Assembly: GCA_048939765.1 (NCBI GenBank)
Contig: JBHLPF010000028.1
Location: 1-17,533 of the forward strand
Source of the DNA: Promethearchaeota archaeon
Lineage (GTDB): Archaea > Asgardarchaeota > Thorarchaeia > Thorarchaeales > Thorarchaeaceae
Direction: 5' to 3'
Length of the DNA: 17,533 nt
Part shown: positions 1 to 16,985 of the stretch, one piece after another
Layout: every line of letters begins with the position of its first letter
How positions within the stretch are numbered: the first letter of the stretch is position 1
The notes under the pieces: generated by a model
Told to the model about the DNA's origin: nothing
The model's database searches: none
What the model saw: the letters and a program-made list of their open reading frames with translations, nothing else
Position numbers and translations under genes: made by a program

Positions 1-398
1 TCAGGTTGGCCGAATCGAGCATTTGATGACGCATATCGTATATCACAGGCCATAGCAAACTCGCACCCACCTCCAAGCGCATAGCCATTGACCGCGGCAA
101 TTGTTGGAATGCTTAAGGACTCTATGTAAGTGCATGCAGCCTGACCATTCTCAACGAAAGGCCGCACTGTCTTTGAGTCCCGCCCTGGAAATGCTGTAAT
201 GTCAGCCCCTGCAGCGAACGCCTTCTCACCCATGCCCGTGAGAATCACAGCTCGTACTTCAGGATCCTCCTCTGCTTTCTGGAAGAAGTTGCGCATTGCA
301 TTGACAACGTCTGTGTTTAGAGCATTGTATTTTTCGGGGCGATTAATAGTGATTATAGCCACACCATCTTCAACTTCATATAGAACCTCATCAGACAT
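1..398 (-). CDS. Enoyl-CoA hydratase/isomerase (crotonase) family protein, 5' part; runs off the window
   Basis: Not in the ORF track; translated by hand as MSDEVLYEVEDGVAIITINRPEKYNALN...KAFAAGADI...IAAVNGYALGGGCEFAMACDIRYASSNARFGQP(E), which has the crotonase oxyanion and catalytic Glu motifs. GGAGG lies 8 nt before ATG 398. An in-frame ATG at 413 is an alternative start. Confidence 0.93.
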   Translation of the reverse strand, partial: MSDEVLYEVEDGVAIITINRPEKYNALNTDVVNAMRNFFQKAEEDPEVRAVILTGMGEKAFAAGADITAFPGRDSKTVRPFVENGQAACTYIESLSIPTIAAVNGYALGGGCEFAMACDIRYASSNARFGQP

Positions 399-562
399 TT
401 CAGGATCCTCCATGAAACTAGTCTGTGAAGCCCCCTAGCCAAGTAATAAGCGTTGGGACCGGAATCGGCAGAAACTACCCTCTGCGTCTAATCTAGGCAA
501 GTAATGGTACTTCCGGTTCTCTTTTTACATCAAAACACATTGATTCAGCGAGGCCCCTTCAA

Positions 563-1759
563 ATGAGTAGAAAATGGCGAATAGCTTCTGAAGAGGAAAT
601 CATCTCGGGGAAAACAACTGACATCTACTTTGAGAGAGCAGTTCAAATCCTCAAAGCGGAGGGGCTCAATCCAACCGTCCATGCAGAGGTCACCGTGTCT
701 GGAATGCCCAGGGAGTTCGATTGGGGTATAGTTGCTGGCGTGAATGATTCGCTGAGGCTGTTCGAAGGAAAAGAAGTTGACATCTTTGGATTGCAAGAGG
801 GGACGTTCTTTAGGCCAAGAGGACCTAATGGTGTGAAGACGCCGGTATTCGCAATAGAAGGTCCATACCAGGAGTTCGCTACTCTTGAAACACCACTGCT
901 TGGCTTCCTCTGTCATACCTCCGGGATGGCGACGCAGACTGCTCATGTTCGAATTGCTGCTGGTGAGAAGAGCCTTCTTTCATTCGGAGCGAGGAGAACT
1001 CATCCAGCAATCACTCCACAGGTTGAATATGCTGCCTTCATTGGCGGATGCGATGGTATTTCTTGCATCCTAGGCGCAGAAATGTTAGGAGTCAATCCTC
1101 AGGGAACAATGCCGCATGCACTCATAATTGCTGCAGGTGGCCACATCAGAGCTTGGCAAGCCTACGATAGACATCTCTCAAAGGATATTCCAAGAATTGC
1201 TCTCACTGACACATATCTCGATGAAGTTGTTGAGTCTGTGATGGCTGCGGATTCGATTGACGACTTGGCAGGAGTCAGACTGGACACGACTAGCAGTAGA
1301 AGAGGAAACTTTGCACGGATCATCCAAGAAGTGCGATGGGAGCTTGATATCCGAGGGCATGAAGATGTCAAGATATACATCAGCGGGGGACTCGATGTAG
1401 CCTCAATTGAGGCATTGTATGAAGCACCGGTTGATGGTTTCGGAGTTGGAGGTGCTATTTCGAATTCGCCCGCAATTGATTTCGCAATGGACATTGTCAT
1501 GAAGCAAGAGAATGGGAAATGGACTCCTAGTGCGAAACGTGGTAAGTTTTCAGGAAGAAAGTCTGTCTGGAGATGCAGCTCATGCTTCGAGGATCGAGTC
1601 ACGCTCTCAGAAGCTCCTTCACCGACTTGCGGCTGTGGCAATAGAATGGAGAAGCTGACCAGCCAATTAATGGAAAGGGGGAAGATTCTGCAGAAAGCAT
1701 TGAGTCCAAAAGCAATCAGAGAGCACGTAATGAAACAGATAGAGAGGGTAAAGAGTTGA
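563..1759 (+). CDS. pncB: Nicotinate phosphoribosyltransferase (archaeal type, with a C-terminal CxxC...CxC Zn-ribbon-like segment)
   Basis: Motifs TDIYF, SFGARRTHP, GTMPHA (phospho-His), DTY, VRLDT, ISGGLD, DGFGVG and KRGKFSG; coupled to a nicotinamidase gene. Confidence 0.93.
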   Translation: MSRKWRIASEEEIISGKTTDIYFERAVQILKAEGLNPTVHAEVTVSGMPREFDWGIVAGVNDSLRLFEGKEVDIFGLQEGTFFRPRGPNGVKTPVFAIEGPYQEFATLETPLLGFLCHTSGMATQTAHVRIAAGEKSLLSFGARRTHPAITPQVEYAAFIGGCDGISCILGAEMLGVNPQGTMPHALIIAAGGHIRAWQAYDRHLSKDIPRIALTDTYLDEVVESVMAADSIDDLAGVRLDTTSSRRGNFARIIQEVRWELDIRGHEDVKIYISGGLDVASIEALYEAPVDGFGVGGAISNSPAIDFAMDIVMKQENGKWTPSAKRGKFSGRKSVWRCSSCFEDRVTLSEAPSPTCGCGNRMEKLTSQLMERGKILQKALSPKAIREHVMKQIERVKS

Positions 1760-2325
1760 CACTTCCCAAGCTAGATCCAGAGAACACCGCACTCATAATC
1801 ATAGACATGCTCAATGATTTTGTTGAGGAGGATGGTGCACTTGTGGTACCGATGGCCAAGGATTTGGTGCCAACACAGATGCAGATTCTCAACAAGGCAC
1901 GTCAGAAGTCCTTCACTGTTGTTTACTTGACTGACAATCACATGCCAGATGATGAGGAGTTCAAAGTCTGGCCCAAACATTCTGTTGCAGGGACACGAGG
2001 TGCTAAAGTGGTTGACGAACTGGCACCGGGTAGGGGTGAGAAAGTCATTCCGAAACGCAGGTACTCGGGCTTTTTTGGTACAGACCTTGACTTGACTCTC
2101 AGGGAAGCTGGAATTACAAATATCATTCTAATGGGAGTCTTGACTGATATATGCGTGATGTACACCTCAGCAGATGCATCAGCCAGAGGCTACAATGTCT
2201 ATGTTGTAGCGGATGGAACTGGCAGCACTGTGAAAGAGAACCATCAATTCGCTCTGCAACATATGAAGGAAGTCCACAACAGTATTGTCGTCACTGCGAA
2301 TCAGGTCTTGACCCAACTACTCTAG
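1756..2325 (+). CDS. pncA: Nicotinamidase / isochorismatase-family cysteine hydrolase
   Basis: Asp-Lys-Cys triad (IIIDMLNDF, KRRYSGFF, TDICV) and metal ligands DNH...H. The TTG start overlaps the pncB stop (TTGA). The pncA call rests on this context. Confidence 0.82.
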   Translation: MTLPKLDPENTALIIIDMLNDFVEEDGALVVPMAKDLVPTQMQILNKARQKSFTVVYLTDNHMPDDEEFKVWPKHSVAGTRGAKVVDELAPGRGEKVIPKRRYSGFFGTDLDLTLREAGITNIILMGVLTDICVMYTSADASARGYNVYVVADGTGSTVKENHQFALQHMKEVHNSIVVTANQVLTQLL

Positions 2326-2448
2326 CCTGGAAGTGCCTTGGGTCCTTCGAATATTGGCGCTTTTCTTCCTCTGCAGCATTGTGATATTCCTCAGGTTTAT
2401 TTAGCTTCAAATGCGGTCTCAGATAGTTTCCTGCCCAGAGGGAAGCAT

Positions 2449-2796
2449 ATGAGTTCAATGAGCAGACGTGCGGTATGGAAGGATTCCCTGATTGCCATGA
2501 AGACCTCACTGGCAAGTTCCTATGACATGAGCACAGCTATCGATGAGCAAAGACGATTTCTCACTGCCTGGGAAAAGGGCGATCTGGAATACATGGTCTT
2601 CTCTGATTATAGACGAAATGAGGGCAAAAGAAGACTCAGAGACGTCATGGAAGTCATCGAGAATGCAATTGTGAAGTTGGATGATTGTGACACAGTGACT
2701 GCATCGAAGGTCTACTTAGATACTCTAAAGACTGTGGCCCTCTTCTCAAAATGGGCCAAGGTTCTTGAAACCTCCTCTTTGTGGTTCAGTTCCTGA
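2449..2796 (+). CDS. Hypothetical ~115-aa alpha-helical protein
   Basis: The ORF fills the gap and reads as protein-like amphipathic helices. ATG 2449 (or 2458) is preferred to TTG 2338 because GAGGGA lies just upstream and a TATA-like TTTATTTA is at ~2396-2403. Confidence 0.65.
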   Translation: MSSMSRRAVWKDSLIAMKTSLASSYDMSTAIDEQRRFLTAWEKGDLEYMVFSDYRRNEGKRRLRDVMEVIENAIVKLDDCDTVTASKVYLDTLKTVALFSKWAKVLETSSLWFSS

Positions 2797-2811
2797 AGGA
2801 AATGGAAGACA

Positions 2812-2826
2812 AGGGCTAGGAGCCCT
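2812..2826. terminator. AGGGC-N5-GCCCT inverted repeat between convergent genes
   Basis: AGGGCT-AGG-AGCCCT, starting 16 nt after stop 2796. Confidence 0.4.
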
Positions 2827-2914
2827 CTGATATGCTATCGCATAGATAAATGGTATCAGACATTCTTACCATCAGTGTGATTCAATCCAAGTCTACTCTC
2901 CAAGGTCGACGGAT

Positions 2915-3469
2915 TCACGCATACATGCGCGAAGAAACACGGGTGATTTTGAATGTACAGCTTTTATCGCCTTTTGACATGCAGGTCTCTTCTTCTACCA
3001 TTAGTTTCCCGTACTCAGTGCTGTCGAGTTCTGAAGCATACTCGAGAACAGCCTCAATGAATCCTTTCAAGAAGTAACAGCTAAATGGTTCATCACTCTC
3101 AACCATGGCTGTATATGGGTTATCCTTAATCTCCAATATCGCCTCTTCGTCTTGCCACTTTATTTGCATCTTAGCAATCTTGATGTCACCAAACGGAACG
3201 ATGAGTCGCTCAAGAGCCATTTTTATAAACTCGATGACGCCCTTGAGATGGCCAAAAGGCTTTCGTCTTCCAATCTGGAAATACTCCTTTTGTGCTTCCA
3301 CTCCTGCCATTCGGCCAGCAGAATAGTAAATATCACGAACGTGGTCTGGGAACATCTCAGCAATTCTATTCGTGAGCTTGCTCAATACCTTAGAGAAGAA
3401 AACAGATACTATCTGCTTCTTATCGAGATGTCCTCGCCACCAAGGTATGACATCTTCTTGTTCCGACAT
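2915..3469 (-). CDS. Standalone V4R (4-vinyl reductase; H-NOX/Bet3-related fold) domain protein
   Basis: YYSAGRMAG helix and C-terminal SCYFLKGFIEA...VEEETCMSKGDKSCTFKI, the typical V4R C...E..C.......C pattern. Confidence 0.85.
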   Translation of the reverse strand: MSEQEDVIPWWRGHLDKKQIVSVFFSKVLSKLTNRIAEMFPDHVRDIYYSAGRMAGVEAQKEYFQIGRRKPFGHLKGVIEFIKMALERLIVPFGDIKIAKMQIKWQDEEAILEIKDNPYTAMVESDEPFSCYFLKGFIEAVLEYASELDSTEYGKLMVEEETCMSKGDKSCTFKITRVSSRMYA

Positions 3470-3540
3470 TTCAACTCTCTCAGGGCTGTGGGATTAATCA
3501 CCAGACTGTTGTTAAGTGCTTTGCTGAGTGTTCAGCAATA

Positions 3541-3573
3541 GAAAAAGGAGAATATGAGGGCAGGAAGCCCTCA
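3541..3573 (-). terminator. Hairpin plus pyrimidine/U tract after the thiolase-DUF35 unit
   Basis: TGAGGGC-N5-GCCCTCA stem at 3555-3573, followed on the minus strand by TATTCTCCTTTTTC. Confidence 0.6.
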
Positions 3574-3579
3574 CTTGGC

Positions 3580-3996
3580 TTATACAAGCCACTTGTATGA
3601 TATTTTCTTGTCGTCAATGTGCTCGAAACCAAGTTTCAAAGGCATACCGACCTCAGGCATACTCATCAGGTTCGTGATGTGCGCTGTCAGTCGAAGACCA
3701 GAGGGAAACTCACCGATAGCAACTACATAGGGAGCTTTTGATGAGAGACTCTCTGGGGCAAACTCCACTACTACGAAGGAACGGAGTTTCGCCTCACGTT
3801 CTGTGAACTCCTCAAACTTGCATTCACTCAAACACTTCTGGCAGTGTTGCCTCGGAGGGAGATACTCTGCACCGCACTGTGTGCAGACACTCTTCATGAT
3901 CTTGTCCTGGTCAAGAGCCTCCAAGAATTCTTGATAGAATGGTGTTACAGCTTTGTCTGAGCTGTAACCTAGATATAGTTCCTTATGCTCGGCCAT
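3580..3996 (-). CDS. DUF35-family Zn-ribbon/OB-fold protein (thiolase partner)
   Basis: CTQCGAEYLPPRQHCQKC Zn ribbon, then APYVVAIGEFPSGLRLTAHI OB fold. Its ATG overlaps the thiolase stop (TAATG). Confidence 0.92.
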   Translation of the reverse strand: MAEHKELYLGYSSDKAVTPFYQEFLEALDQDKIMKSVCTQCGAEYLPPRQHCQKCLSECKFEEFTEREAKLRSFVVVEFAPESLSSKAPYVVAIGEFPSGLRLTAHITNLMSMPEVGMPLKLGFEHIDDKKISYKWLV

Positions 3997-5162
3997 TAGA
4001 ATCCCCTCTCAAAGATAAAGACATTGACAAACTGCCCGCTTTGGCCAACATTGTGGGCAAGGCCATATTGGACATCTTTAATCTGTCTGGACTGGTTCTC
4101 TGCTTCGCCTCTCATCTGTTTCAGAATCTCGTATGTCATGGATACGCCAGTGGCACCCAGTGGGTGACCCTTGCTCTTTAGACCACCATCGCAGTTGATT
4201 GGAATGCGCCCGTCGTGGTAGACATCTTTGTTTTCTATGAGCTCTCTCCCTTTGCCAGGCTCTGCGAAACCGATGTCCTCGTAGGCAACCAACTCAGCAA
4301 TGCTGAAACAGTCGTGCACCTCAGCCATGTTTATGTCATCTGGCTTGAGTCCGGCCATATCAAAAGCCGCTTTTGATGCGCGTTTGGCTCCTGGAATTGA
4401 AGTGAGGCTCTTACGATCTTGAATCATCATGGCTGACGCGCCAGCCCCAATGCCTGTGATCCACATAGGTCTGTCAGTGAACTCTTTCACACGATCTTCA
4501 GCTGCGATAACAACTCCCGCAGCACCATCAGTGATAAGACTGCAATCGTAAAGGTTGAGAGGCCTACAGATAGGAACTGCGTTATTTGCCTCTTCCAGTG
4601 AAACCTCTTTGCCCAAATGTGCCTTCGGATTCTGAGCACCATAATGATGCGACTTCACTGAGATTTTGGAAAGGACTTCGTGGGGCAGATTATAATCTGC
4701 CATGTATCTGGAAGCCATCAGTGCATAGAATGCGGGAAAACTGATTCCAAATGGATACTCCCAGCGCATATCACCTGCTTGACTCATGTACTCGGTCGCG
4801 GTTGCAGATGACACACGATTCATCTGTTCGACTCCAAGCACAAGCATTACATCATAAAGCCCTGCGGCTACCATGCCCCATGCTGCTCTCAGTGATGCCG
4901 TGCCAGTTGTACAGGCTGATTCAACTCTAAGGTGAGGCTTATCATGTAGCCCAATATAGTCTGCAATTAGAGCTGAACCTGCTCCCTGACCAGTGAACTG
5001 AGATGCGGCATAAGAGAGTACTGAAGCATCAATCTTGTCTTGAGTGATTCCTTCATCATAGATTGGTTTGTATGCCTCTGCACACAGCTCTCTCATGGTG
5101 GCATCGTACCGCTTTCCGAATTTGCTGTGGCCGCCAGCAACGACAGCAACTTTTCTTGCCAT
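3996..5162 (-). CDS. Thiolase (acetyl-CoA acyltransferase), SCP2/SCPx archaeal type
   Basis: ESACTTG (catalytic Cys), EVHDCF, KGHPLGATG and HNVG motifs. ATG 5162 (MARKVAVV) has GGAGG upstream; the ORF-track start at 5198 lies within the TATA region. Confidence 0.95.
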   Translation of the reverse strand: MARKVAVVAGGHSKFGKRYDATMRELCAEAYKPIYDEGITQDKIDASVLSYAASQFTGQGAGSALIADYIGLHDKPHLRVESACTTGTASLRAAWGMVAAGLYDVMLVLGVEQMNRVSSATATEYMSQAGDMRWEYPFGISFPAFYALMASRYMADYNLPHEVLSKISVKSHHYGAQNPKAHLGKEVSLEEANNAVPICRPLNLYDCSLITDGAAGVVIAAEDRVKEFTDRPMWITGIGAGASAMMIQDRKSLTSIPGAKRASKAAFDMAGLKPDDINMAEVHDCFSIAELVAYEDIGFAEPGKGRELIENKDVYHDGRIPINCDGGLKSKGHPLGATGVSMTYEILKQMRGEAENQSRQIKDVQYGLAHNVGQSGQFVNVFIFERGF

Positions 5163-5186
5163 TTCTTTTCCTCCGTGCAGAACCTG

Positions 5187-5202
5187 TATATATAGCATAA
5201 AA
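5187..5202 (-). promoter_or_regulatory. TATA-box-like element(s) of the thiolase promoter
   Basis: The minus strand reads TTTTATGCTATATATA, 25-40 nt upstream of ATG 5162. Confidence 0.5.
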
Positions 5203-5240
5203 CAGGTCCTTTCAATCCGTAACTACTCGCGATTCCTAAA

Positions 5241-5285
5241 TTAAGGTAAACTTAAGGTTGACGATTAGAGGATTATTTACCTTAA
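5241..5285. repeat. Perfect 10-bp inverted repeat TTAAGGTAAA-N25-TTTACCTTAA upstream of the thiolase
   Basis: Arms at 5241-5250 and 5276-5285, with an extra TTAAGGT copy at 5252-5258. Confidence 0.6.
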
Positions 5286-5357
5286 AGGACATCATCTTGA
5301 CGATAGTGGCACCAGTCTAACCGATTAATCAATTGGTCTATCGACTAGACACTGTGC

Positions 5358-5392
5358 GAAGAAAGAGGGCGGTCCTCCCTGGTGAGAGGACC
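5358..5392 (-). terminator. Hairpin plus pyrimidine tract after the ECH gene
   Basis: GGTCCTC-N8-GAGGACC at 5371-5392, then GCCCTCTTTCTTC on the minus strand. Confidence 0.55.
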
Positions 5393-5399
5393 AATAGGT

Positions 5400-6212
5400 C
5401 TATTCGCCCGTGAATTTGCCTCGACGCTTTTCTAGGAGGGCTGAGATTCCTTCAGCCAAGTCCTTGGTCTTGAAGCAATCAACGCAAGCCTCCACTTCAT
5501 ATTTGAAGTTCTGTTCAGTTTTCTCCTCCAAAGCCAAGTGAGTTGCTTTCTTAGCGAGCGCAACCGCAATGGGAGCATTTCCTCCCACCTTTGCACCATA
5601 CCACATGGCTTGGCTGAGAAGCTCGTCCTTGGATACGACCTTGCTCACAAGTCCCATTGCTAAGGCCTCATCGGCAGTGACTTGACCACCAGTTAGAATG
5701 AGTTCCATTGCTTTTCCAAGACCAACGATTCTGGGCAGCCGTAGGCAACCACCCCAAGCCGGGAATAGTCCTAAGCTTACTTCCGGCGTTCCCATTTTGG
5801 CTTCCTTCTCGCAAATCCTGATGTCGCATGCAAGAGCGATCTCAAGACCACCTCCAAGAGCCAGTCCATTGACTGCAGCAATGGTCACCTTATCCATAGT
5901 AGCCAGTCGATTTAGGATTGCTTGACCTTGAGCTACAGTTTCTCCCACATTCGACGGGTCACTCAGCATCGTCTGAGCCATCTTCATGTCAGCACCGACG
6001 CAGTAGGCCTTATCATGATTTGATGCAATTACAATGGAACGAACATCAGGATCCTTCTCAGCTTCATCCAGAGCGGCGTTGAAATCCTCGATGAATTTAT
6101 CGTTGATTGCATTTAGTGCATCAAGTCGGTTGAACTTGATAACCGCTGTGTTCTTCACAGGAGAGAGGAAAGATCCCTCCTTGCTATAGAGCATTGTTTC
6201 GAATTCTGGCAT
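5400..6212 (-). CDS. Enoyl-CoA hydratase (crotonase)
   Basis: AYCVGADM, AAVNGLALGGGLEIALACDIR and PEVSLGLFPAWGG (both catalytic Glu present). ATG 6212 is preceded by a GGTGA SD; the ORF-track GTG at 6221 is part of that SD. Confidence 0.94.
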   Translation of the reverse strand: MPEFETMLYSKEGSFLSPVKNTAVIKFNRLDALNAINDKFIEDFNAALDEAEKDPDVRSIVIASNHDKAYCVGADMKMAQTMLSDPSNVGETVAQGQAILNRLATMDKVTIAAVNGLALGGGLEIALACDIRICEKEAKMGTPEVSLGLFPAWGGCLRLPRIVGLGKAMELILTGGQVTADEALAMGLVSKVVSKDELLSQAMWYGAKVGGNAPIAVALAKKATHLALEEKTEQNFKYEVEACVDCFKTKDLAEGISALLEKRRGKFTGE

Positions 6213-6307
6213 TTCAATCACCTTTTGAAAATCTGTGCTGTTGGGGATATGCCCTACTTAAAAATCCGCTCCTAAAAGGCTGCTTCTGTGACAATGGAGG
6301 ATATATC

Positions 6308-6339
6308 AAAAAATCAGAAGGCAGGGCGTTCAGCCCTGC
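6308..6339 (-). terminator. Hairpin plus U tract after the HADH gene
   Basis: GCAGGGC-N5-GCCCTGC at 6321-6339, followed on the minus strand by CTTCTGATTTTTT. Confidence 0.65.
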
Positions 6340-6348
6340 ATTTCAAAT

Positions 6349-7473
6349 CTACTTCAGATACTTGGGCATGCTATAGCATTCACCAAGCTCAGACTCGAGC
6401 TTCCCGATGAACTCTTTGCACCTTTCAAGTCCGTATTGGTCTGCCATCTCGAATGGACCCATTGGCCAGCTCGCTCCGAGCTTCATTCCCATGTCGATGT
6501 CCTCTCTATTGGCAATCTGCTCATCGACAAGAATCATAGCTTCTCGAATTGCAGGCATGTTGAGCCGTTCCACGATCCACTCTGCATCTGCGCCTTTTGG
6601 TGCTTCAGGTTTAGCATCATCAGCAGCATAGTCATAGAATCCTTTCTTGGATTTCATTCCTATGGCTCCCGATTCAACAAGCTTGGATAGAGTTTCAGGT
6701 GGCTTGAAGCAATCGCCAATTTCCCTATAGAGCGTCGACATAGCGTGGAAGGTGATATCCAGACCGACAAAGTCCGCTAGTGAGAATGGACCAGCTGGAG
6801 CTTTTCCTATGCTCACCATGGCAGTGTCAATCTCTTCTTTTGTTGCATCACCTCGCTCTAACATTAGGATTGCCTCGCGCATAACCGGCATGAGAAGACG
6901 GTTGACAATGAAACCAGGGCTATTCTTTGCAAAAACAGTCTGCTTGCCTTGCTTATGGCCAACTGCTTTCGCAACATTGATTGTTTCTTCACTTGTTTTC
7001 TCGCCAAGTACTATCTCTAGTAGCTTCATTGCAGGAACTGGTGAGAAATAGTGCATTCCAATGAATCTGTCAGGGCGACCAGTAGCACTCGCGAGTTCGT
7101 CAATGCTTAGAGAGGAGGTATTCGTTGCTAAGATGCAGTGCTCTGATGCAACTGCGTCAATCTTAGCAAAAACCTCCTTCTTGACTTCCATGTTCTCAAA
7201 GATGGCTTCAATGACAAGGTCTGCATCTTTCACTGCTGCTTCAGTATCAGTGCTCCCCTTGAGTCTCGACATGAGACCCTCAGCCTCAGTGATAGACATC
7301 TTGCCCTTGTCAATACCAGTCATCACGTCGGTTCGGACTTTTTCGATACCCTTGTCCACAAGGTCCTGATTGATATCAACCATGGTGACCTCGTACCCAT
7401 TCCAAGCTGACACATATGCTATGCCAGAGCCCATCAGACCAGAACCAATGACTGCGATTTTCTTGACGTCCAT
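6349..7473 (-). CDS. 3-hydroxyacyl-CoA dehydrogenase with a duplicated C-terminal 3HCDH domain
   Basis: GSGLMGSGIA Rossmann motif, EAIFENMEVK, NTSSL, GMHYFSP, PGFIVNR and GPFSLADFVGLD, then a second IVERL...IDMGMKLGASWPMGPFEMADQYGL repeat. Confidence 0.95.
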   Translation of the reverse strand: MDVKKIAVIGSGLMGSGIAYVSAWNGYEVTMVDINQDLVDKGIEKVRTDVMTGIDKGKMSITEAEGLMSRLKGSTDTEAAVKDADLVIEAIFENMEVKKEVFAKIDAVASEHCILATNTSSLSIDELASATGRPDRFIGMHYFSPVPAMKLLEIVLGEKTSEETINVAKAVGHKQGKQTVFAKNSPGFIVNRLLMPVMREAILMLERGDATKEEIDTAMVSIGKAPAGPFSLADFVGLDITFHAMSTLYREIGDCFKPPETLSKLVESGAIGMKSKKGFYDYAADDAKPEAPKGADAEWIVERLNMPAIREAMILVDEQIANREDIDMGMKLGASWPMGPFEMADQYGLERCKEFIGKLESELGECYSMPKYLK

Positions 7474-7848: not shown

Positions 7849-8376
7849 TCATTCCTCCTTGGCAACCCAGTCGGTTATTGCTTCCTGCATCGCGGCATCG
7901 ACACTGACTGTCCAGATATTCCCTTTCTTCTTCCTCACGGCATCAAGAAACTCGTCATATCGATCGCCATCCATTGTGACAACGACACGTCCTTGCCTAT
8001 CTTCTATAAACGCCTGATGGTACATCTTCTTCGAGGTCCAGTACTCGTGCTGGATATCGCCTTCCTTGAGGCGGGGGTAGAACGGCCACTCACCGGATGG
8101 ATGTGCACGAAACTTCTTTCCTCCAGATTTCCACTTTTTGACTAGGTCCCCAGTGGCTTCCTTGAATCCTGGTCGGAAAGGCCATTGTGGCACATAGCGG
8201 AATCCTTTCTCCCCATCCACCTCGCCTTTGGACCATCTACCAGTATAGACTCGTCCACCTTTATTGTCACAGAATTGCTCCATTACAACCTCGATGAACC
8301 CTTCAAGAGTCAACCCAGCTTCTTCAGCTCGTTCCTTCATGTTCTCTAGCGTTTCGCCTTCGAAATTGACTTCCAT
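7849..8376 (-). CDS. Hypothetical 175-aa protein, possibly with RHH-like domains at both termini and an internal WPFxP repeat
   Basis: Tightly packed in the operon (4-nt gaps) with a GGGGTGA SD. The domain assignment is my pattern inference. Confidence 0.75.
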   Translation of the reverse strand: MEVNFEGETLENMKERAEEAGLTLEGFIEVVMEQFCDNKGGRVYTGRWSKGEVDGEKGFRYVPQWPFRPGFKEATGDLVKKWKSGGKKFRAHPSGEWPFYPRLKEGDIQHEYWTSKKMYHQAFIEDRQGRVVVTMDGDRYDEFLDAVRKKKGNIWTVSVDAAMQEAITDWVAKEE

Positions 8377-10545: not shown

Positions 10546-12675
10546 TCATTCTCCTCCAATAGTAATCTTCACATCTACTGCAATGGCACCATTGCCCTTC
10601 TCGTAAGCGAATGCAGGATTGATATCCAATTCTACAATATCCTCGAAATCGGATACAAGCTGTGATATCCGCAAGATAGTGTCAGTCACTGCATCAATAT
10701 CACTTGGTTCCTCGCCCCTTACTCCGCTAAGCAATGTGCCCATTTTTGTTTCAGAAATCAGATCAGCTGCATCGCTACGAGTCATCGGTGCAAGTCTGAA
10801 TGCTACATCCTTTAGATAGTTGACAAAAATCCCGCCAGCTCCAAACATAATCAAAGGGCCAAACTGTATATCTCGCGAACATCCGATAATCAGCTCCTTT
10901 CCTTTCTCTGCCATTTCCTGGACATCTACGCCATAAACGACTGCCCTCGGTACATGGGTTTTGACATTATCGAGAATCTGGAGAAAGGCATTTTCAACCT
11001 CTTCTTCGGAGTTCATGCCAATCATAATACCGCCAATGTCGCTCTTGTGAACGATATCTGGACTAGCAATCTTCATGACAACAGGGAAACCTATGTCCAC
11101 AGCAATTCCCTTGGCTTCCTCAGCACTTGTGGCCAGTTTCGTTCTCGCAACTCGAATACCATATGCTTCAGCTATTTCGTGTGCTTCACTACCCAGCATC
11201 ACTCTTCTTCGGTCATCTCGAACGCTTTTGATTATCTCCTTGACACGCTTCCTATCCACCTCAAAATCGGGAGGTGTTTCATCCTTTAGGCTATCCCGTA
11301 GAACGGTATATCGATAGAGTTCAGCAATTGCATTTACAGCACGCTCAGGAAAGTCAAACACAGGAATACCACCTTCATTCAACACAATTCGTGGATAGAT
11401 CATCGAGTTCCCGCCCATGAACACAGCTAAGAGAGGCTTGTTTGGATACTTCCTGTGACATTCAACAATTGCCTGAGCCGTTTCTGTTTCTTTTGTCATC
11501 GCTTGCGGTGTAAGTAGAACCAGAACAGAGTCAACATTTTCATCCTGAAGTGTAGTTTCGACACAGAGAGCATAGTCCTCTGGTTGAGCAGTCCCGAGTG
11601 CATCCACTGGATTGTATACCGAAGCTGCGGAAGGCAATCCATTCTTCATCTTCTCGATAGTGGATGGTGAAAATTGAGCCATCTGTAGACCATTCATCTC
11701 GACTGCATCAGTTGTAAGGATTCCAGGACCTCCAGCATTAGTCACAATTGCCACACGATTTCCCCTCGGCAAGTGACAGTCATCAAACACATTTGCCACA
11801 TCAAATAACTCTGACATACTATCTGCTCGAATCACACCACATTGTTTGAAAGCAACAGAATAGGCAGTATCGCTTCCCGCCAGTGAGCCCGTGTGGGATG
11901 ATGCTGCTCTAGCACCTGCTGCGCTAATACCGGATTTGACTACATAGATAGGCTTGCGTGGAGCAACATTCCGGCAGACTTCCATGAACTTCTTGCCATC
12001 AACCACCGATTCAATGTAAAGAAGCAAGAAATTTGTGTCGGGATCTCTTCCGAAAGCTTCTACGAAATCTGCTTCATCAAGTTGGGCTTTGTTCCCTAGA
12101 CTCACGAATTTTGAAAAACCGATCTTCTCCATTAGACTCCAATCAAGTATCCCTGTCATCAGGGCACCAGATTGAGAGGCAAAAGCCACACTGCCTTTCA
12201 CCGGAGTGCCCGCGGCAAATGACGCATTATAGGGCGCAAAGGTGTTTACAATCCCCAGACAATTTGGCCCTTGCACAATCATGCCATATTTCTCTGCTAT
12301 CTCAACTATCTTCTTCTCTGCTTCTTGACCTTCGTGTCCGATTTCCTTGAAACCAGCTGTGATAATGACTAGGGCAGTGACTCCTTTCTCACCGCACTCC
12401 ACCATGACTGGAAGAACAAATTTGGCAGGGACTACTATGACTGCAACATCAACATCCCCCGCAATCTCAGAAATAGACCGATAGACCTTGAGGTCTAGAA
12501 TTTCTCCTGCCTTAGGATTAATCGGGTATATTCTTCCCTCAAAGCCACTCTCGATAAGGTTGCGTACTACATCATTTCCCAATTTTCCCTTAGTCGCAGA
12601 AGCGCCAATCACTGCTATCGATTTTGGATTGAATAGTACATCAATGCCCTTCTGTCTGTCCACCTTCAAGCACAA
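10546..12675 (-). CDS. acdAB: ADP-forming acetate/acyl-CoA ligase, fused alpha-beta (ACD)
   Basis: CoA-binding PKSIAVIGAS, GPNCLG, SQSGA, SLGNK, ASSHTGSLAG (phospho-His), TNAGGPG and NPVD, plus an ATP-grasp domain (KIASPDIVHKSDIGG...ELDINP). The exact start is uncertain (GTG 12675, TTG 12669 or GTG 12663). Confidence 0.92.
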   Translation of the reverse strand: MCLKVDRQKGIDVLFNPKSIAVIGASATKGKLGNDVVRNLIESGFEGRIYPINPKAGEILDLKVYRSISEIAGDVDVAVIVVPAKFVLPVMVECGEKGVTALVIITAGFKEIGHEGQEAEKKIVEIAEKYGMIVQGPNCLGIVNTFAPYNASFAAGTPVKGSVAFASQSGALMTGILDWSLMEKIGFSKFVSLGNKAQLDEADFVEAFGRDPDTNFLLLYIESVVDGKKFMEVCRNVAPRKPIYVVKSGISAAGARAASSHTGSLAGSDTAYSVAFKQCGVIRADSMSELFDVANVFDDCHLPRGNRVAIVTNAGGPGILTTDAVEMNGLQMAQFSPSTIEKMKNGLPSAASVYNPVDALGTAQPEDYALCVETTLQDENVDSVLVLLTPQAMTKETETAQAIVECHRKYPNKPLLAVFMGGNSMIYPRIVLNEGGIPVFDFPERAVNAIAELYRYTVLRDSLKDETPPDFEVDRKRVKEIIKSVRDDRRRVMLGSEAHEIAEAYGIRVARTKLATSAEEAKGIAVDIGFPVVMKIASPDIVHKSDIGGIMIGMNSEEEVENAFLQILDNVKTHVPRAVVYGVDVQEMAEKGKELIIGCSRDIQFGPLIMFGAGGIFVNYLKDVAFRLAPMTRSDAADLISETKMGTLLSGVRGEEPSDIDAVTDTILRISQLVSDFEDIVELDINPAFAYEKGNGAIAVDVKITIGGE

Positions 12676-12776
12676 CCAGGACTAAATCAATGCCGGAGTT
12701 TTCGTACCGGGGGTGTATGATATACCTTCTGCCAATGAGGCAAACTAGACATCAAATAGAGGGGTGCCGAATCCAG

Positions 12777-12802
12777 TTTCATATATGAGACCCAGTATTA
12801 CT
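12777..12802 (+). promoter_or_regulatory. TATA-like box plus palindromic AGTATTACT site (candidate RHH operator)
   Basis: TTTCATATAT at 12777-12786 and AGTA-T-TACT at 12794-12802; AGGTGA SD at 12838-12843. Confidence 0.55.
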
Positions 12803-12850
12803 CGCAATCATATTGATGTGTTACGTGGGTTTCACACAGGTGATACTCAC

Positions 12851-12991
12851 ATGAAGCTCGTAACTCTACACATTCCTGAAACATACGTTGAAGGACTTGA
12901 GAAATTAGTGGACAGTAATCTCTATCCGAATCGTTCTGAGGCAATCAGGATTGCCATTCGTGATCTTCTGAAGAGAGAGCTGTGGAGTTAA
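12851..12991 (+). CDS. 46-aa ribbon-helix-helix (CopG/Arc/MetJ) regulator, CdrS/aCcr1-like, copy 1
   Basis: MKLVTLHIPETYVEGLEKLVDSNLYPNRSEAIRIAIRDLLKRELWS, with an AGGTGA SD 7 nt before the ATG. Confidence 0.93.
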   Translation: MKLVTLHIPETYVEGLEKLVDSNLYPNRSEAIRIAIRDLLKRELWS

Positions 12992-13008
12992 GGGAGTTGA
13001 AGGAATAG

Positions 13009-13149
13009 ATGAAGCTAATCACGCTTCATGTCCCGGAGCAGTATATAGAAGGTCTTGAGAAGCTGGTTGACAACAAGCTCTATCCAAACAGGTCCGAGGC
13101 CATTCGCATTGCTATCAGAGACCTCTTGAAAAGAGAGCTTTGGGGTTAG
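13009..13149 (+). CDS. 46-aa ribbon-helix-helix regulator, CdrS/aCcr1-like, copy 2 (absent from the ORF track)
   Basis: Translated by hand as MKLITLHVPEQYIEGLEKLVDNKLYPNRSEAIRIAIRDLLKRELWG*; 39/46 identical to copy 1; GAAGGA upstream. Confidence 0.93.
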   Translation: MKLITLHVPEQYIEGLEKLVDNKLYPNRSEAIRIAIRDLLKRELWG

Positions 13150-13217
13150 AATTGCACCCGGGTTTGGCGCCAGCGAATAGTAGATACGAGCCCAATTTAG
13201 GCATCCGAGATTGATTG

Positions 13218-13234
13218 AAAAGCGCTTTTTCTTC
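13218..13234 (+). terminator. Palindrome AAAAGCGCTTTT running into a U-rich tract, downstream of the RHH pair
   Basis: 12-bp perfect palindrome at 13218-13229; the sequence from 13226 reads TTTTTCTT. Confidence 0.35.
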
Positions 13235-13384
13235 GGATGCTATGTCAACTCAAAGTCGCGAGTCATGTGCGTACAGATACAAACCTTAATATGGCCTCAT
13301 ATAATATAATCAATGGCAGGCGGGACCCTGCTAGACCTCATGACTCGGAGTTTGGCTGCAACAGCGACCAGGAGCATCATGTGA

Positions 13385-14356
13385 ATGGGACTAGACTCAA
13401 CCGCCATGGCGGGACCTTTGACTGGCAATAATCGCTTTGTGAAGGGATGCCCATGTCTCAAGGAGTTCGGCAATGAGAAGGTCTGCCTGAACAATGATGA
13501 CGTAGTCCCAATTGTCACTATCGCAGTCGACCCAATGTTCCTGGGAGACGCGACATCATCTACAGACCTTGCCAATCTCAAGAGCGATAATGAGAGCATG
13601 TGCTACCTTCTGATTCTTCTTGATGCTGATGCGGATCACACCTACTGTATTAGTCAGGGCCAGAAGATTCGGATTAATTCACAAGATGTCAAGGCTTCGG
13701 AGATTCTAGCAGCACTGCAATTCGTGACAACCACGGAGCAGGCAAGTGATGGCATTGCATGCTCTTCATGCCTCTACAAGTACCTAGTCACACTCGGAGA
13801 AACGTTTGACGATATTCTATCAGAGGCTGAGCGTTCAGAGCTAATCTCTGCGTACGTGAAGAATATCACCTCTCAGATGGCTACAGAGCTAATTGGGAGC
13901 GATGCAACCACAAACCCAGAAGTGATCGATGAACTCGTGAATAGTAGAATCAACAAGCTCCTCACCTTGAGAATAACTTGGGCATCAATTCTGCATGATC
14001 TCAATAGGGACAATGGTGACAGAAAACTCATCGATCTCATTCGTCGCTATAGACAGTTAGCACGATTTGAAACGATATTCCTCTTTCAAGTCTCGACGCT
14101 GAGGGAGTCAGAAGACAAGGAAGTTTCTTTGGGTCTATTGAGATTCATGGTGGATGTTGCAGAACGTATAGTCAGTGTGATTGCATTAATCAGAGATTCG
14201 ACGCATTCTTTGGCAGAGTCAGGTAATGTGCCCAAACACATACATGATCTTTTGGATGAGCAGATTGAAGATCGGAATCGAACAGAAGAGTGGTTCACAA
14301 ACCTAGTGAAACTGCTTAATACGATTGAGATTCGCACGGCACAAAAATCCTCATAA
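13385..14356 (+). CDS. Hypothetical Cys-rich protein, paralogue A (323 aa)
   Basis: Long ORF with full-length similarity to the next gene. AGGAG lies upstream of ATG 13385 (alternative start ATG 13406) and an AT-rich ATATAATATAAT element is at ~13298-13309. Confidence 0.88.
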   Translation: MGLDSTAMAGPLTGNNRFVKGCPCLKEFGNEKVCLNNDDVVPIVTIAVDPMFLGDATSSTDLANLKSDNESMCYLLILLDADADHTYCISQGQKIRINSQDVKASEILAALQFVTTTEQASDGIACSSCLYKYLVTLGETFDDILSEAERSELISAYVKNITSQMATELIGSDATTNPEVIDELVNSRINKLLTLRITWASILHDLNRDNGDRKLIDLIRRYRQLARFETIFLFQVSTLRESEDKEVSLGLLRFMVDVAERIVSVIALIRDSTHSLAESGNVPKHIHDLLDEQIEDRNRTEEWFTNLVKLLNTIEIRTAQKSS

Positions 14357-14428
14357 ACATGCGCGTCACTGAGAAGTGAGGTTAAGTAAGAGACCCACTA
14401 GCTAGAAATCGTAAATGGAGCCGATGGA

Positions 14429-15397
14429 GTGACTGTAGGACTGAATGACGGGCAGAGCCAGAGTCAAATCAAGCTGGTTAGAGGCTGCCCTTGCTACAAA
14501 GTCTTCGGAGACGAGAAGCTTTGCGTTAATGATGACAAGGTCCTAGAGGTTGAAGCCATCGAAATAGACCCCATGCTCTTCTCGTATCACAAGACTAGAG
14601 AAAGCATGAAGGCCGAAGAGGCCATAGATGACAATGTATGCTATACAGCAATCTTCGTCAACCATCCGGATAACAGGGTGTTCTGTATATCTCAAGGATG
14701 GGTCCTAAGAATCCATGGAAGAGATGTTCCGGGCGACGACTTGGAGGATGCACTGCAGTTCCTGTCAACGAAGGACCTTTCAGCGAGTGCGGAGATATGT
14801 TCTGAATGCCTCTACAAATTCCTGCTCACCCTCTCAGACAAGTTTGCAGACACCATGTCGAAGAAGGAGAAGACTGATGAAGTAAAGCGCTATGTAGACA
14901 AATTCTCGCTCATGATAGCTGTGAAAGCCAGTCAGACTGACAAAATGATGGAACCAATAGGCACTGAAGATGATATTGAGGAGGGTGTCGATCACTTTGG
15001 ATTCCTCAGGAAGTATCTGGTCCAGCTCCTTGAACAACAGGAGTCCTGGACCGAGCTATTGAACGAGTTTTCTGATGAAGCAGACACCTGGCTGCAAAAC
15101 ATAGTGGAGATGAGAGTCCGCCTAGCAAGACTGGAGTATCAATTCTACAGTCAGACTCTGCAAATAAGAGACATAAACGACTTCAACATGCTAATCAAAA
15201 TGCTGCAGTTCATTCTCAAGACATCCAGTGACATTCTGAATCTGAATGAACAAATCCATACGGAGATACGGTCTAGAGCTTTCTGCGAGAAAGCCGAATC
15301 AGACGCCAGGTTAGACAATCTGGCATCCTATGCCGACAAGAGCAGAACAGTTGAGCATAACTTCGGGAATATCCTTCAAATCCTCAGTAAGCTATGA
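14429..15397 (+). CDS. Hypothetical Cys-rich protein, paralogue B (322 aa)
   Basis: GTG start with GGAG 8 nt upstream. Shares GCPC, FGxEKxC, DPM, CY, CISQG, ALQF, CSxCLYK and LARxE with paralogue A. Confidence 0.9.
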   Translation: MTVGLNDGQSQSQIKLVRGCPCYKVFGDEKLCVNDDKVLEVEAIEIDPMLFSYHKTRESMKAEEAIDDNVCYTAIFVNHPDNRVFCISQGWVLRIHGRDVPGDDLEDALQFLSTKDLSASAEICSECLYKFLLTLSDKFADTMSKKEKTDEVKRYVDKFSLMIAVKASQTDKMMEPIGTEDDIEEGVDHFGFLRKYLVQLLEQQESWTELLNEFSDEADTWLQNIVEMRVRLARLEYQFYSQTLQIRDINDFNMLIKMLQFILKTSSDILNLNEQIHTEIRSRAFCEKAESDARLDNLASYADKSRTVEHNFGNILQILSKL

Positions 15398-15417
15398 TTT
15401 TGCGGTTCCATGCATCA

Positions 15418-16377
15418 TTACTTGAGGACTCCAAAGGTTTGCACAAGCCAGTCTAGATATAGCTTAACTCCTTGCCTCAGGGAAATCTTTTGCTTCCAGC
15501 CAGCTTTTCGCAATAACCCAACATCTAGATCAGTAATCAGCACATCTCCTGACCAACCACGTTCAGATCCAGTGTAGTGGATTTCAACATCAGTTCCAGT
15601 AAGCTCTTCAACGACCAGTTGAGCAATGTCACTTACCTTCAATCGTTCTCCAGAACCCACATTGACTGGAGTATAACCCGAAGCCATATTCTGAGCTAAT
15701 GCGATAGTTGCATCAGTAGCATCCGTTACATACATGTATGATTTCTCCTGCAAACCGGTTCCAAGGACTTCGAGACGATTCGGATTCTTCTTGAGCTTCT
15801 CATAAAAATCAAAAATGACGCCATGAGTCAATCGGGGTCCAATGATGTTTGCCAGTCTCAGACTTACAGAGTCAAATCCATACAAGGCTGAATACGATGA
15901 GAGATACATTTCCACTGCACACTTTGCCGCCCCATAGTTACTGATGGGCCTAAGGGGAGTCGACTCAGGCGTAGGCAGAATCTCTGGATCACCATAAACA
16001 GTCCCCCCAGAGGATGCAAACACAATCTTGGTAACGTCATTCAGCCTCATAGTTTCTAGTAGCAGGAGGCTTCCTTGCACATTTATATCAAAGTCCAAGA
16101 GGGGTTGAGCGATACTGAGCCTCACGTCAGGCTGTGCGGCAAAATGATAGACAATGTCAATGCTATCCATCACCTTGGAGATATCATCGTCAGAGGTGAT
16201 TGAGCCTTTCACAAATAGGAACTTGACATCTTCTTCATGCTGCCGAAGGTTATCCATCGCTCCAGTTGATAGATCATCTAGCACAACCACCTCATGGTCT
16301 GTCAATAGACGATCAACCAAATGGCTGCCCAGAAATCCTGCCCCACCAGTCACCAATATTCTTGCCATTGCATTCAT
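15418..16377 (-). CDS. NAD-dependent epimerase/dehydratase (UDP-glucose 4-epimerase-like extended SDR)
   Basis: ILVTGGAGFLGSHL, HFAA, FASSGGTVYG and YGAAK motifs. The start may be ATG 16368. Confidence 0.92.
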   Translation of the reverse strand: MNAMARILVTGGAGFLGSHLVDRLLTDHEVVVLDDLSTGAMDNLRQHEEDVKFLFVKGSITSDDDISKVMDSIDIVYHFAAQPDVRLSIAQPLLDFDINVQGSLLLLETMRLNDVTKIVFASSGGTVYGDPEILPTPESTPLRPISNYGAAKCAVEMYLSSYSALYGFDSVSLRLANIIGPRLTHGVIFDFYEKLKKNPNRLEVLGTGLQEKSYMYVTDATDATIALAQNMASGYTPVNVGSGERLKVSDIAQLVVEELTGTDVEIHYTGSERGWSGDVLITDLDVGLLRKAGWKQKISLRQGVKLYLDWLVQTFGVLK

Positions 16378-16409: not shown

Positions 16410-16985
16410 CTAGGCAGTGAAACGGGAATCGGAAAGGATGCTCTCGATGAGCAATGATGCAGTGGGATTTTCTTGATTCTTATTCCATTCTGATACGAAT
16501 TCCCGGTAGAGCGACAATTCTCTCAAGATTGGAAGTGATATAGCCTTGAGTTCGTTGAACGCAATTTCAGGTCCTGTTCCCAAGCCCGGACATATCTCTT
16601 TCACAGCGCTCAAGCCCCAAGTAGTTTCCCCCTCTTTCTCTCGGAATACAAAAGGGAATGACCTGCACACACCAGGTCTAAATTGGTGAATCATGCAGAG
16701 ATCGTCTGACAGGAAGATACACTCCTTGTTTTCCATTCGGCGAAGAGCAATATAGGCCGCTCCATGTTCGGTGTTCACGGCAGGTATATCTCTCATACCA
16801 GCAGGCGGGTCACCACCATTCTCAGGCAACACATAGAAATCCAAAGCACGAAGTGTTTCGGATGTCGAGGTATCCAAGAAGAATGATAGACGCACTATAT
16901 CATTGCCGGTGACTGTCACTAGAAGTTCCTTCTCCTTGCAGCATGCCCCACACTTCGTGCACTCGAAATGGACCTGAGTTCCCAG
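16410..16985 (-). CDS. YkgJ-family CxxCxxCC (Zn/Fe-S-chelating) protein, probable CTG start
   Basis: The in-frame extension upstream of the ORF-track start gives GTQVHFECTKCGACCKEK; later CIFL...CMIHQFRPGVCRSFPF...CPGLG. GAGGTG lies 7 nt before CTG 16985. Confidence 0.85.
   Translation of the reverse strand: MGTQVHFECTKCGACCKEKELLVTVTGNDIVRLSFFLDTSTSETLRALDFYVLPENGGDPPAGMRDIPAVNTEHGAAYIALRRMENKECIFLSDDLCMIHQFRPGVCRSFPFVFREKEGETTWGLSAVKEICPGLGTGPEIAFNELKAISLPILRELSLYREFVSEWNKNQENPTASLLIESILSDSRFTA

Follow-up and report, generated by a model that had tools for sequence, protein, structure and literature searches.

Which function, if any, joins two very small regulator genes to the pair of cysteine-rich protein genes that follows them in a Thorarchaeaceae genome, and does cell division come into it? 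Here we examine this question in a 17,533-nt stretch of DNA, called the window throughout and meant at its full length, from contig JBHLPF010000028.1 of a Promethearchaeota archaeon (Thorarchaeaceae; assembly GCA_048939765.1; genome of 3.37 Mb, 88.5% complete). Its plus strand carries two ribbon-helix-helix (RHH) genes, RHH1 and RHH2, directly followed by the genes of two paralogous proteins, A and B. The data suggest that Thorarchaeota have expanded a CdrS/aCcr1-like regulator to four fixed paralogues with one constant neighbour apiece, and that a palindromic box in the promoter of the window copies recurs before several cell-cycle genes.

Asgard archaea are the closest known relatives of eukaryotes. 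To our knowledge, almost nothing is known of how their cell cycle is controlled, and we know of no cultured, tractable member of the Thorarchaeota, a lineage that is not genetically manipulable. Two systems described in other archaea offer a point of departure. In the cdrS-ftsZ2 locus of Halobacteria and other archaea, a small RHH gene lies directly upstream of, and is co-transcribed with, ftsZ2 (PMC7439475; PMC8406309). In Sulfolobales, the RHH protein aCcr1 is associated with the aCcr1-box (PMC9976878, PMC9976892), a 9-bp palindrome, A(T/G)G(A)TA(G)A(T/G)TACN, located between TATA and the start codon (PMC9976878).

Results

Twin CdrS/aCcr1-like regulators

The locus was originally described, from its letters alone, as four co-oriented genes in two paralogue pairs, forming a plus-strand block amid minus-strand metabolic genes. 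All four genes are present as claimed, and annotation of the flanking minus-strand genes confirmed the setting, with ADP-forming acetyl-CoA synthetase (ACD) on one side and an epimerase, a CxxCxxCC protein and an aminotransferase on the other. The features referred to below are as follows, with the basis of each in brackets (BRE, transcription factor B recognition element; ORF, open reading frame).

12777-12786, plus strand: TATA-like element TTTCATATAT of the RHH promoter (sequence; putative TATA role)
12794-12802, plus strand: box 1, the palindrome AGTATTACT with core GTAWTAC, a candidate RHH operator (conserved in orthologous promoters)
12818-12824, plus strand: box 2, GTGTTAC in the window's genus (starts 23 bp after the start of box 1)
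12851-12991, plus strand: RHH1, a 46-residue CdrS/aCcr1-like RHH protein (Pfam RHH_1, NCBIfam CdrS and aCcr1 scores)
13009-13149, plus strand: RHH2, 46-residue tandem paralogue of RHH1 (Pfam RHH_1, NCBIfam, pairwise identity)
13201-13240, plus strand: hairpin with the conserved element CATCCGAGATTGATTGAAAAG (13202-13222) and a T5 run (comparison of spacers)
13279-13294, plus strand: predicted BRE/TATA-like promoter element of the A-B unit, ACAAACCTTAATATGG (conserved in orthologous loci)
13385-14356, plus strand: protein A, 323 residues, an N-terminal seven-cysteine domain and a C-terminal five-helix bundle (ORF, alignment, AlphaFold2 (AF2) model)
14429-15397, plus strand: protein B, 322 residues, a paralogue of A with the same architecture (BLASTP against A; GTG start common to orthologues)

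RHH1 begins at the conserved ATG at 12851, behind a Shine-Dalgarno sequence (AGGTGAT, 12838-12844); the upstream GTG of a 75-residue ORF was rejected as its start in favour of this ATG. RHH2, likewise preceded by a Shine-Dalgarno sequence, follows after 17 nt, a gap short enough to suggest co-transcription of the two, and is separated from A by a spacer of 235 bp. The two RHH proteins agree in 39 of 46 residues (85%) and their genes in 95 of 138 bases (69%), with 26 of the identical residues encoded by different codons. High protein identity combined with low base identity and so many codon differences indicates that the duplication is old and the pair under strong purifying selection. In congeners whose protein A is only 77-93% identical, both RHH proteins are 100% identical.

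Classification of the RHH proteins is based on curated hidden Markov model scores, synteny and a tree of Thorarchaeota paralogues. Pfam RHH_1 (PF01402, CopG-Arc-MetJ superfamily) matches RHH1 and RHH2 with 35.2 and 34.6 bits, above its gathering cut-off of 20.5 (E 1e-8; 1.1e-8 for RHH1). The NCBIfam models rank with CdrS first (NF058555, a haloarchaeal equivalog; 52.2 and 52.5 bits, cut-off 100), followed by NikR N-domains and aCcr1 (NF053762; 22.9 and 24.8 bits, cut-off 60). A search of the whole genome with the CdrS model returned seven matches, the window pair being the best (50.9 and 50.6 bits). The initial assignment of these proteins as CdrS/aCcr1-like is therefore borne out, as they are the genome's best CdrS-model matches, albeit under both curated cut-offs. 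They putatively belong with CdrS and aCcr1 in function as well, within the putative cell-cycle regulon described below.

Four paralogues, each with its own neighbour

Three further RHH paralogues, 64-71% identical to the window RHH, are encoded elsewhere in the same genome. One of them (C64:47436-47579; 65-71% identical) is followed after 48 nt by a true ftsZ (Pfam Tubulin and FtsZ_C; TIGR00065, 419 bits), which fits the position of CdrS relative to ftsZ. Another stands upstream of a 197-residue protein that matches no family (U197), and the third upstream of an FtsX-like permease and a LolD/FtsE-type ABC ATPase. We compared six Thorarchaeota genomes from six genera, the window's genome included, and each of the five others holds exactly four such RHH genes in the same four contexts: U197 is always found downstream of its own CdrS-like paralogue, and the permease/ABC pair always downstream of the most divergent one. 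In the tree of Thorarchaeota RHH proteins the ftsZ-, U197- and ABC-linked groups form clades with support of 99-100, and the A/B-linked proteins make up a short-branched core that the tree leaves unresolved.

The place held by ftsZ in cdrS loci had been proposed to be occupied here by an unrecognised paralogue pair. This is literally true, the arrangement being one of four fixed RHH-neighbour pairs. CdrS is defined functionally by a gene directly upstream of ftsZ2, and the window copies, which precede A-B, lie outside that definition.

As side observations on the other neighbours, U197 (on C45 of the window's genome; locus L028:3823-4416, minus strand) combines an acidic, probably disordered N-terminus with a folded C-terminal part of about 130 residues. 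The FtsX-like permease has 173 residues and a Pfam FtsX score of 23 bits, just under the cut-off; it and the ATPase gene lie on C87 (locus L029:6225-7426, plus strand).

A promoter box common to RHH and cell-cycle genes

Box 1 begins about 8 nt after TTTCATATAT in the window, and AT-rich words of the TTGAATAYCGAC type occupy the equivalent place in orthologous loci, about 8-10 nt before the box. The core GTAWTAC is present in 58 of 62 orthologous RHH promoters, mostly 55-60 nt before the ATG. Box 2 reads GTATGAC in most other genera (consensus GTRTKAC), and its start-to-start spacing of 23 bp from box 1 is fixed in 40 loci; both boxes lie between the AT-rich element and the Shine-Dalgarno sequence, and the composite box1-N16-box2 is unique in the window's genome. 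On the evidence of sequence, the arrangement typical of aCcr1 targets, with a 9-bp palindromic box between TATA and start codon ahead of cell-division genes, is thus found here too. In ftsZ-linked RHH promoters the box is present as well, at -53 in each of the six, and the U197-linked promoters have it at about -72. ABC-linked RHH promoters of the six genera lack it, and the RHH protein encoded there has a divergent DNA-reading strand.

Across the genome we found 162 GTAWTAC sites, 51 (31%) of them in the approximately 9% of the DNA that a crude ORF call leaves non-coding. This intergenic bias ranks seventh among 1344 7-mers of the same composition, for which the median is 10%. For the full 9-mer AGTAWTACT there is no genome-wide excess (27 sites, where genome size predicts about 26), so that the weight is carried only by the 7-mer core, through its intergenic bias and its conservation across genera. 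Twenty genes, chosen only by a box 45-110 nt upstream, include those for a second FtsZ, SMC, Cdc6/Orc1, topoisomerase VI-B and DNA ligase. The cdc6 box is kept in all six genomes, where it directly abuts a CTTTAT TATA box; the smc box, in the form of a pair 11 bp apart, in five; the topoisomerase VI-B (topoVI-B) box in five, with a one-mismatch box in one more; and that of the second ftsZ (ftsZ-b) in four, with one-mismatch boxes in the other two. The box upstream of DNA ligase was treated as chance because neither of two orthologues keeps it. Sites of the conserved set (cdc6/orc1, smc, the second ftsZ and topoVI-B) in the window's genome are C36:19664, C37:27179, C26:25061 and C35:35665.

The presence of GTAWTAC before cdc6, smc, the second ftsZ, topoVI-B and the ftsZ- and U197-linked RHH genes suggests a cell-cycle regulon. 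From the precedent of aCcr1 we infer that the RHH proteins read this box. Since their own promoter has it in common with cdc6, smc, ftsZ and topoVI-B, a cell-cycle role for RHH is plausible.

Two other groups of such words were seen in the same genome. Three GTATTAC boxes lie within 36 bp at C12:14177-14212, upstream of a gene for a 130-residue SH3-domain protein (Pfam SH3_2, E 1.5e-9). Several GTATTACA(A)AC words are found at C37:96346-104072, where the crude ORF call finds few genes; these may be a repeat array rather than operators.

Linkage of RHH with A-B

The relatives of the window's genome are public 'Candidatus Thorarchaeota' metagenome-assembled genomes (MAGs). A same-strand RHH gene lies directly 5' of A-B in about 80 of 85 Thorarchaeota loci, taken in two sets (20 and 65) that overlap in species; the exceptions are mostly contig ends. 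With R for RHH, the gene orders were RAB (54 loci), RRAB (19), RRA (three, at contig ends), RBB (three), RRRRAB (one), AB (three, where the contig begins inside A), RB (one) and B alone (one), and the A-B tandem pair is present in nearly all genomes of the window's family. Tandem RHH copies, in the 19 RRAB loci and the RRRRAB locus, occur in other lineages too, and by this measure tandem amplification of the A/B-linked RHH gene has happened repeatedly. In locus CAYFTD010000481.1 four RHH-like matches precede A-B; in some other loci there are two.

Between RHH2 and A, the spacer appears to contain a promoter of its own. The pattern AAANNTT[AGC]AT[AC][TA], about 100 nt before the A match, is found in 32 of 62 RHH-to-A spacers and in none of the control regions (0/62 and 0/63), and the BRE/TATA-like AAANNTTRATAT is followed in the spacers by genus-specific inverted repeats. 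The word AGATTSATTSAAA is present in 30 of the 62 spacers and in 0 control regions, and is unique in the window's genome. The original prediction had noted the gap, with a possible terminator and an AT-rich promoter; the gap is real and the promoter element conserved, but the terminator did not hold. The window hairpin is no more stable than shuffled sequences (fold energy z -1.47) and was rejected as a terminator or RNA element on that account; an Rfam scan of 12500-15600 gave no match at E 1 or below. Two details of the spacer (13150-13384) may be added: it contains AGATTGATTGAAA as a candidate site word, and the word CATCCKAGATTSATTSAAAWG (13202-13222) gives, on the reverse strand, TTTGAATGAAT, a sequence similar to the AT-rich element in the RHH promoter. 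CATCCKAGATTSATTSAAAWG could be a second operator or an antisense promoter.

Several observations weigh against RHH and A-B acting together in the cell cycle. Neither the CdrS nor the aCcr1 model gives the RHH proteins a score that reaches its curated cut-off, and the GTAWTAC box could be read by a different factor. The box is found in only one of 62 RHH-to-A spacers and none of 63 A-B gaps, and a hairpin with a T-run lies just after the RHH stop in 12 of 62 loci. Taken with the predicted promoter of A-B, these features indicate that the two halves are probably separate transcription units, and for A-B a unit separate from RHH is most likely. The wider neighbourhood is syntenic as well (ACD in 49/66, the epimerase in 25/66 and the CxxCxxCC gene in 57/66 loci), so that the adjacency of RHH and A-B may partly reflect slow genome rearrangement. 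In a genome of the sister family (G025) a single A/B-like gene occupies the same neighbourhood with no RHH gene, and in other Asgard families no RHH gene was found within 1.5 kb of genes for the cysteine domain. The RHH-RHH-A-B order put forward for a synteny survey is upheld within Thorarchaeota, as RHH-(RHH)-A-B, and not outside it.

All of these points but the first two would be expected if RHH and A-B were neighbours by descent only, with RHH regulating itself and distant promoters, and A-B being an independent operon of unrelated function in a region that is rarely rearranged. Set against this explanation, which we regard as rather unlikely, are the specificity and the persistence of the arrangement. 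All four RHH groups keep one particular neighbour over six genera, one of these pairs being the established cdrS-ftsZ arrangement, and RHH is inserted precisely 5' of A/B, where it has been kept in the great majority of loci and repeatedly duplicated in tandem.

A new Asgard-specific protein family

A and B align end to end with 27% identity (BLASTP, E 1e-43) and are old paralogues by that comparison. B evolves more slowly, its orthologues being 91-95% identical where those of A are 77-93% identical. Both proteins are acidic (pI 4.7) and soluble by prediction, with no hydrophobic segment typical of a membrane span. The N-domain of A covers residues ~14-141 (DNA 13424-13807) and the helical part residues ~145-323. 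A contains exactly seven cysteines, all invariant in 23 homologues (C22, C24, C34, C73, C88, C126 and C129), in the pattern CPC-x9-C ... C-x14-C ... CxxC, with the CxxC at a helix start. From the cysteine pattern alone we infer that A and B bind metal.

That A and B belong to no recognised family, as first supposed, was borne out by Pfam, NCBIfam and profile searches of Protein Data Bank (PDB) sequences, which revealed no metabolic or other family. The best Pfam values (E 0.06-0.09; MatP_C 0.087, DPC2 0.06) are noise, and the PDB profile searches (profiles A1 and A2) gave nothing below E 0.07; Arf/Sar1 rows in the A2 search were set aside, as they stem from a few GTPase residues added by fusion rows. 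A profile search of 1.84 billion representative proteins produced only 68 matches, among them about 25 full-length proteins, many stand-alone N-domain-only proteins of about 135 residues, proteins in which the N-domain follows an Arf-family GTPase (Pfam Arf, E 1e-43 and 6e-39) and weak thioredoxin-like fusions (E 3e-4). The Arf GTPase fusions come from 'Heimdallarchaeota' MAGs. Among 400 genomes of the Asgard phylum the cysteine domain is present in 139, including 78 of 85 in the window's family and all or nearly all members of several other families, and in 0 of 135 in the largest family sampled. By these searches the N-domain is Asgard-restricted, and A and B are a new Asgard-specific protein family, built on a 6-7-cysteine domain and a helical bundle.

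One genome of another Asgard family (G117, family f20) encodes four different architectures of the cysteine domain: two separate fusions to Arf-like GTPases, a version in which the domain follows a long N-terminal region, and a version with an A/B-like helical tail; close relatives of the G117 Arf fusion are found in Heimdallarchaeota MAGs. The genes, all on the plus strand, are:

L109:976-1986
L117:964-1956
L116:862-1989
L115:1501-2424

Structure prediction by AF2 gave a predicted local distance difference test (pLDDT) score of 77 for full-length A and of 87.2 for its N-domain alone, the latter with a predicted template-modelling score (pTM) of 0.81. The Foldseek comparison proposed at the outset found no known relative of A in the PDB, with best E 0.086 for the full-length model and 0.72 for the N-domain. 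For the N-domain the best BFVD value was E 0.41, VIA comparison with 48,161 chains gave a best Z of 2.3 and only nine chains at Z 2 or above, and an ESM Atlas search produced no usable match; by these tests the predicted N-domain gives no clear match to a zinc-ribbon, treble-clef or Fe-S fold and is without a known fold. A VIA-wide comparison of residues 145-323 returned only generic helical bundles at Z 10 or lower, where the chance level for helical bundles is roughly 13. The up-down bundle of long helices resembles the hemerythrin-like RIC proteins ScdA (9j47) and YtfE (5fnn) at Z 8.7-9.5, a range comparable to the Z of 10.0 to an unrelated membrane protein. The helical half of the 23 homologues has no conserved His, and kinship with ScdA/YtfE was dropped because no His/Glu di-iron ligands are conserved; the likeness is one of common arrangement, not kinship.

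These properties bear on another explanation, in which A and B would be redox or iron-sulfur proteins serving the neighbouring metabolism (acetyl-CoA synthetase, CxxCxxCC protein) as an electron-transfer or cluster-carrier module unrelated to division. Six to seven invariant cysteines in a cytoplasmic protein of an anaerobe would suit such a role, as would the thioredoxin-like fusions and the ACD and CxxCxxCC neighbours, which are kept even in G025. We nevertheless consider it improbable: the sequence and fold searches gave no similarity to ferredoxin, rubredoxin, HdrC-type or other Fe-S or Zn families, the long helical bundle is devoid of a conserved His/Glu metal site, the thioredoxin-like partner in fusion protein P0067 lacks a CxxC active site, and the partners in the strongest fusions, Arf-like GTPases, are proteins of signalling and not of redox chemistry. 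That the RHH proteins are ParD/CopG-type antitoxins of a toxin-antitoxin or mobile-element module, with A/B as cargo or toxin, is highly improbable, since the 'ParD family antitoxin' labels of relatives in some public annotations and a weak ParD match (TIGR02606, 14-15 bits, far under the cut-off of 46.2) are set against the lack of any toxin family match of A/B in Pfam or NCBIfam, the four paralogues at fixed chromosomal places in each genome, beside housekeeping genes such as ftsZ, extreme RHH sequence conservation and an unremarkable window composition (GC 0.44-0.50 throughout).

Other genes of the window

Convergent to B, at 16410-16919 on the minus strand, lies the CxxCxxCC gene, encoding a putative zinc/iron-chelating protein of 169 residues (PF03692). 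The minus strand of 3-7473 holds a beta-oxidation-like set comprising two copies of enoyl-CoA hydratase, 3-hydroxyacyl-CoA dehydrogenase, thiolase and the DUF35/OB-fold partner of the latter, and the plus strand of the same interval a nicotinate-type phosphoribosyltransferase and an isochorismatase. In that interval, 2915-3469 (minus strand) encodes a 184-residue protein with a V4R domain match under the cut-off (E 6e-6); Thorarchaeota V4R/TRAPPC3-like proteins with a Cys4 zinc site have been reported (PMC10933270). A 175-residue ORF at 7849-8376 (minus strand) has no Pfam match.

Discussion

Taken as a whole, we give roughly even chances to the reading that RHH is the node of a regulon and A-B its dedicated, cell-cycle-linked neighbour. 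RHH dimers would bind the boxes as aCcr1 does in Sulfolobales, and RHH would be one node in a cell-cycle regulon and repress or tune its own gene. A and B would bind metal (Zn or Fe-S) in the cytoplasm and act jointly, probably in a hetero-oligomer; just as one RHH paralogue has ftsZ for its dedicated neighbour, or 'client', the window paralogue would have A-B. The role of A and B may be that of a sensor or adaptor in cell biology linked to the cell cycle. Small GTPases are possibly involved too, a link that is considered because Heimdallarchaeota have this domain fused to Arf-like GTPases. The route of coupling between RHH and A-B would then be protein contact, read-through transcription or a site in the A-B promoter that has escaped recognition, and not GTAWTAC. 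Control of A-B by RHH and a role of A/B in division are plausible by association. The idea of a cell-cycle module under RHH, with which the analysis began, therefore fares differently in its two halves: the boxes before RHH, cdc6, smc, ftsZ and topoVI-B make it plausible for RHH, and the A-B promoter has no box.

A bolder version, speculative and in our estimate improbable, holds that A and B are trans-acting sensor subunits, whose metal- or redox-sensitive cysteine domain binds the 46-residue RHH dimers and gates the regulon (cdc6, smc, ftsZ, topoVI-B) according to cellular state, each of the four CdrS paralogues being paired with a partner encoded by its neighbour. If true, this would be a previously unseen way of building cell-cycle checkpoints in the closest prokaryotic relatives of eukaryotes. 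If, on the other hand, A and B are ordinary metal proteins and the linkage is historical, the regulon prediction and the new domain family remain.

The papers searched on cdrS-ftsZ2, aCcr1 and Asgard Arf-like GTPases (including PMC10933270) contain no account of multiple Thorarchaeota CdrS paralogues, of an Asgard GTAWTAC regulon or of this cysteine domain, which is no proof that none has been published. Asgard Arf-like GTPases (AArf/ArfR) with 'additional domains' have been described in general terms (longin, roadblock; PMC11914678, 10.1101/2024.02.28.582541). The N-domain of A/B is found at the C-terminal end of Arf-family GTPases encoded in Heimdallarchaeota MAGs, whereas A and B themselves have no GTPase domain. 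Its restriction to Asgard archaea and its repeated fusion with Arf-like GTPases make the N-domain a candidate for a new partner of the 'eukaryote-like' GTPase machinery.

Comparison with cdrS-ftsZ2 reveals the same layout of a tiny RHH gene directly upstream, on the same strand, of a presumed non-enzymatic cell-biology gene. The window RHH proteins are the closest to CdrS in their genome, a paralogue stands 48 nt before ftsZ, and the candidate operator is palindromic. The differences are that the window proteins reach 52 bits against the haloarchaeal equivalog cut-off of 100, that a Cys-rich pair and not ftsZ lies downstream, that a 235-bp spacer with its own predicted promoter replaces the co-transcribed arrangement, and that Thorarchaeota have four paralogues instead of one, with a tandem duplicate here in addition.

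The likeness to aCcr1 lies in the size of the RHH protein, in a 9-bp palindromic box with a AGTATTACN-like core between TATA and start codon, in the recurrence of that box before several cell-cycle genes, and in the proposed action, repression by blocking initiation. The window RHH proteins differ in scoring 23-25 bits in the aCcr1 model (cut-off 60), and the targets of the box, here predicted from sequence, are ftsZ, cdc6, smc and topoVI-B rather than cdvA. The prediction of a cell-cycle regulon from a box common to Thorarchaeota and the aCcr1 system of Sulfolobales lends itself to in vitro work with a 46-residue protein and short DNA duplexes.

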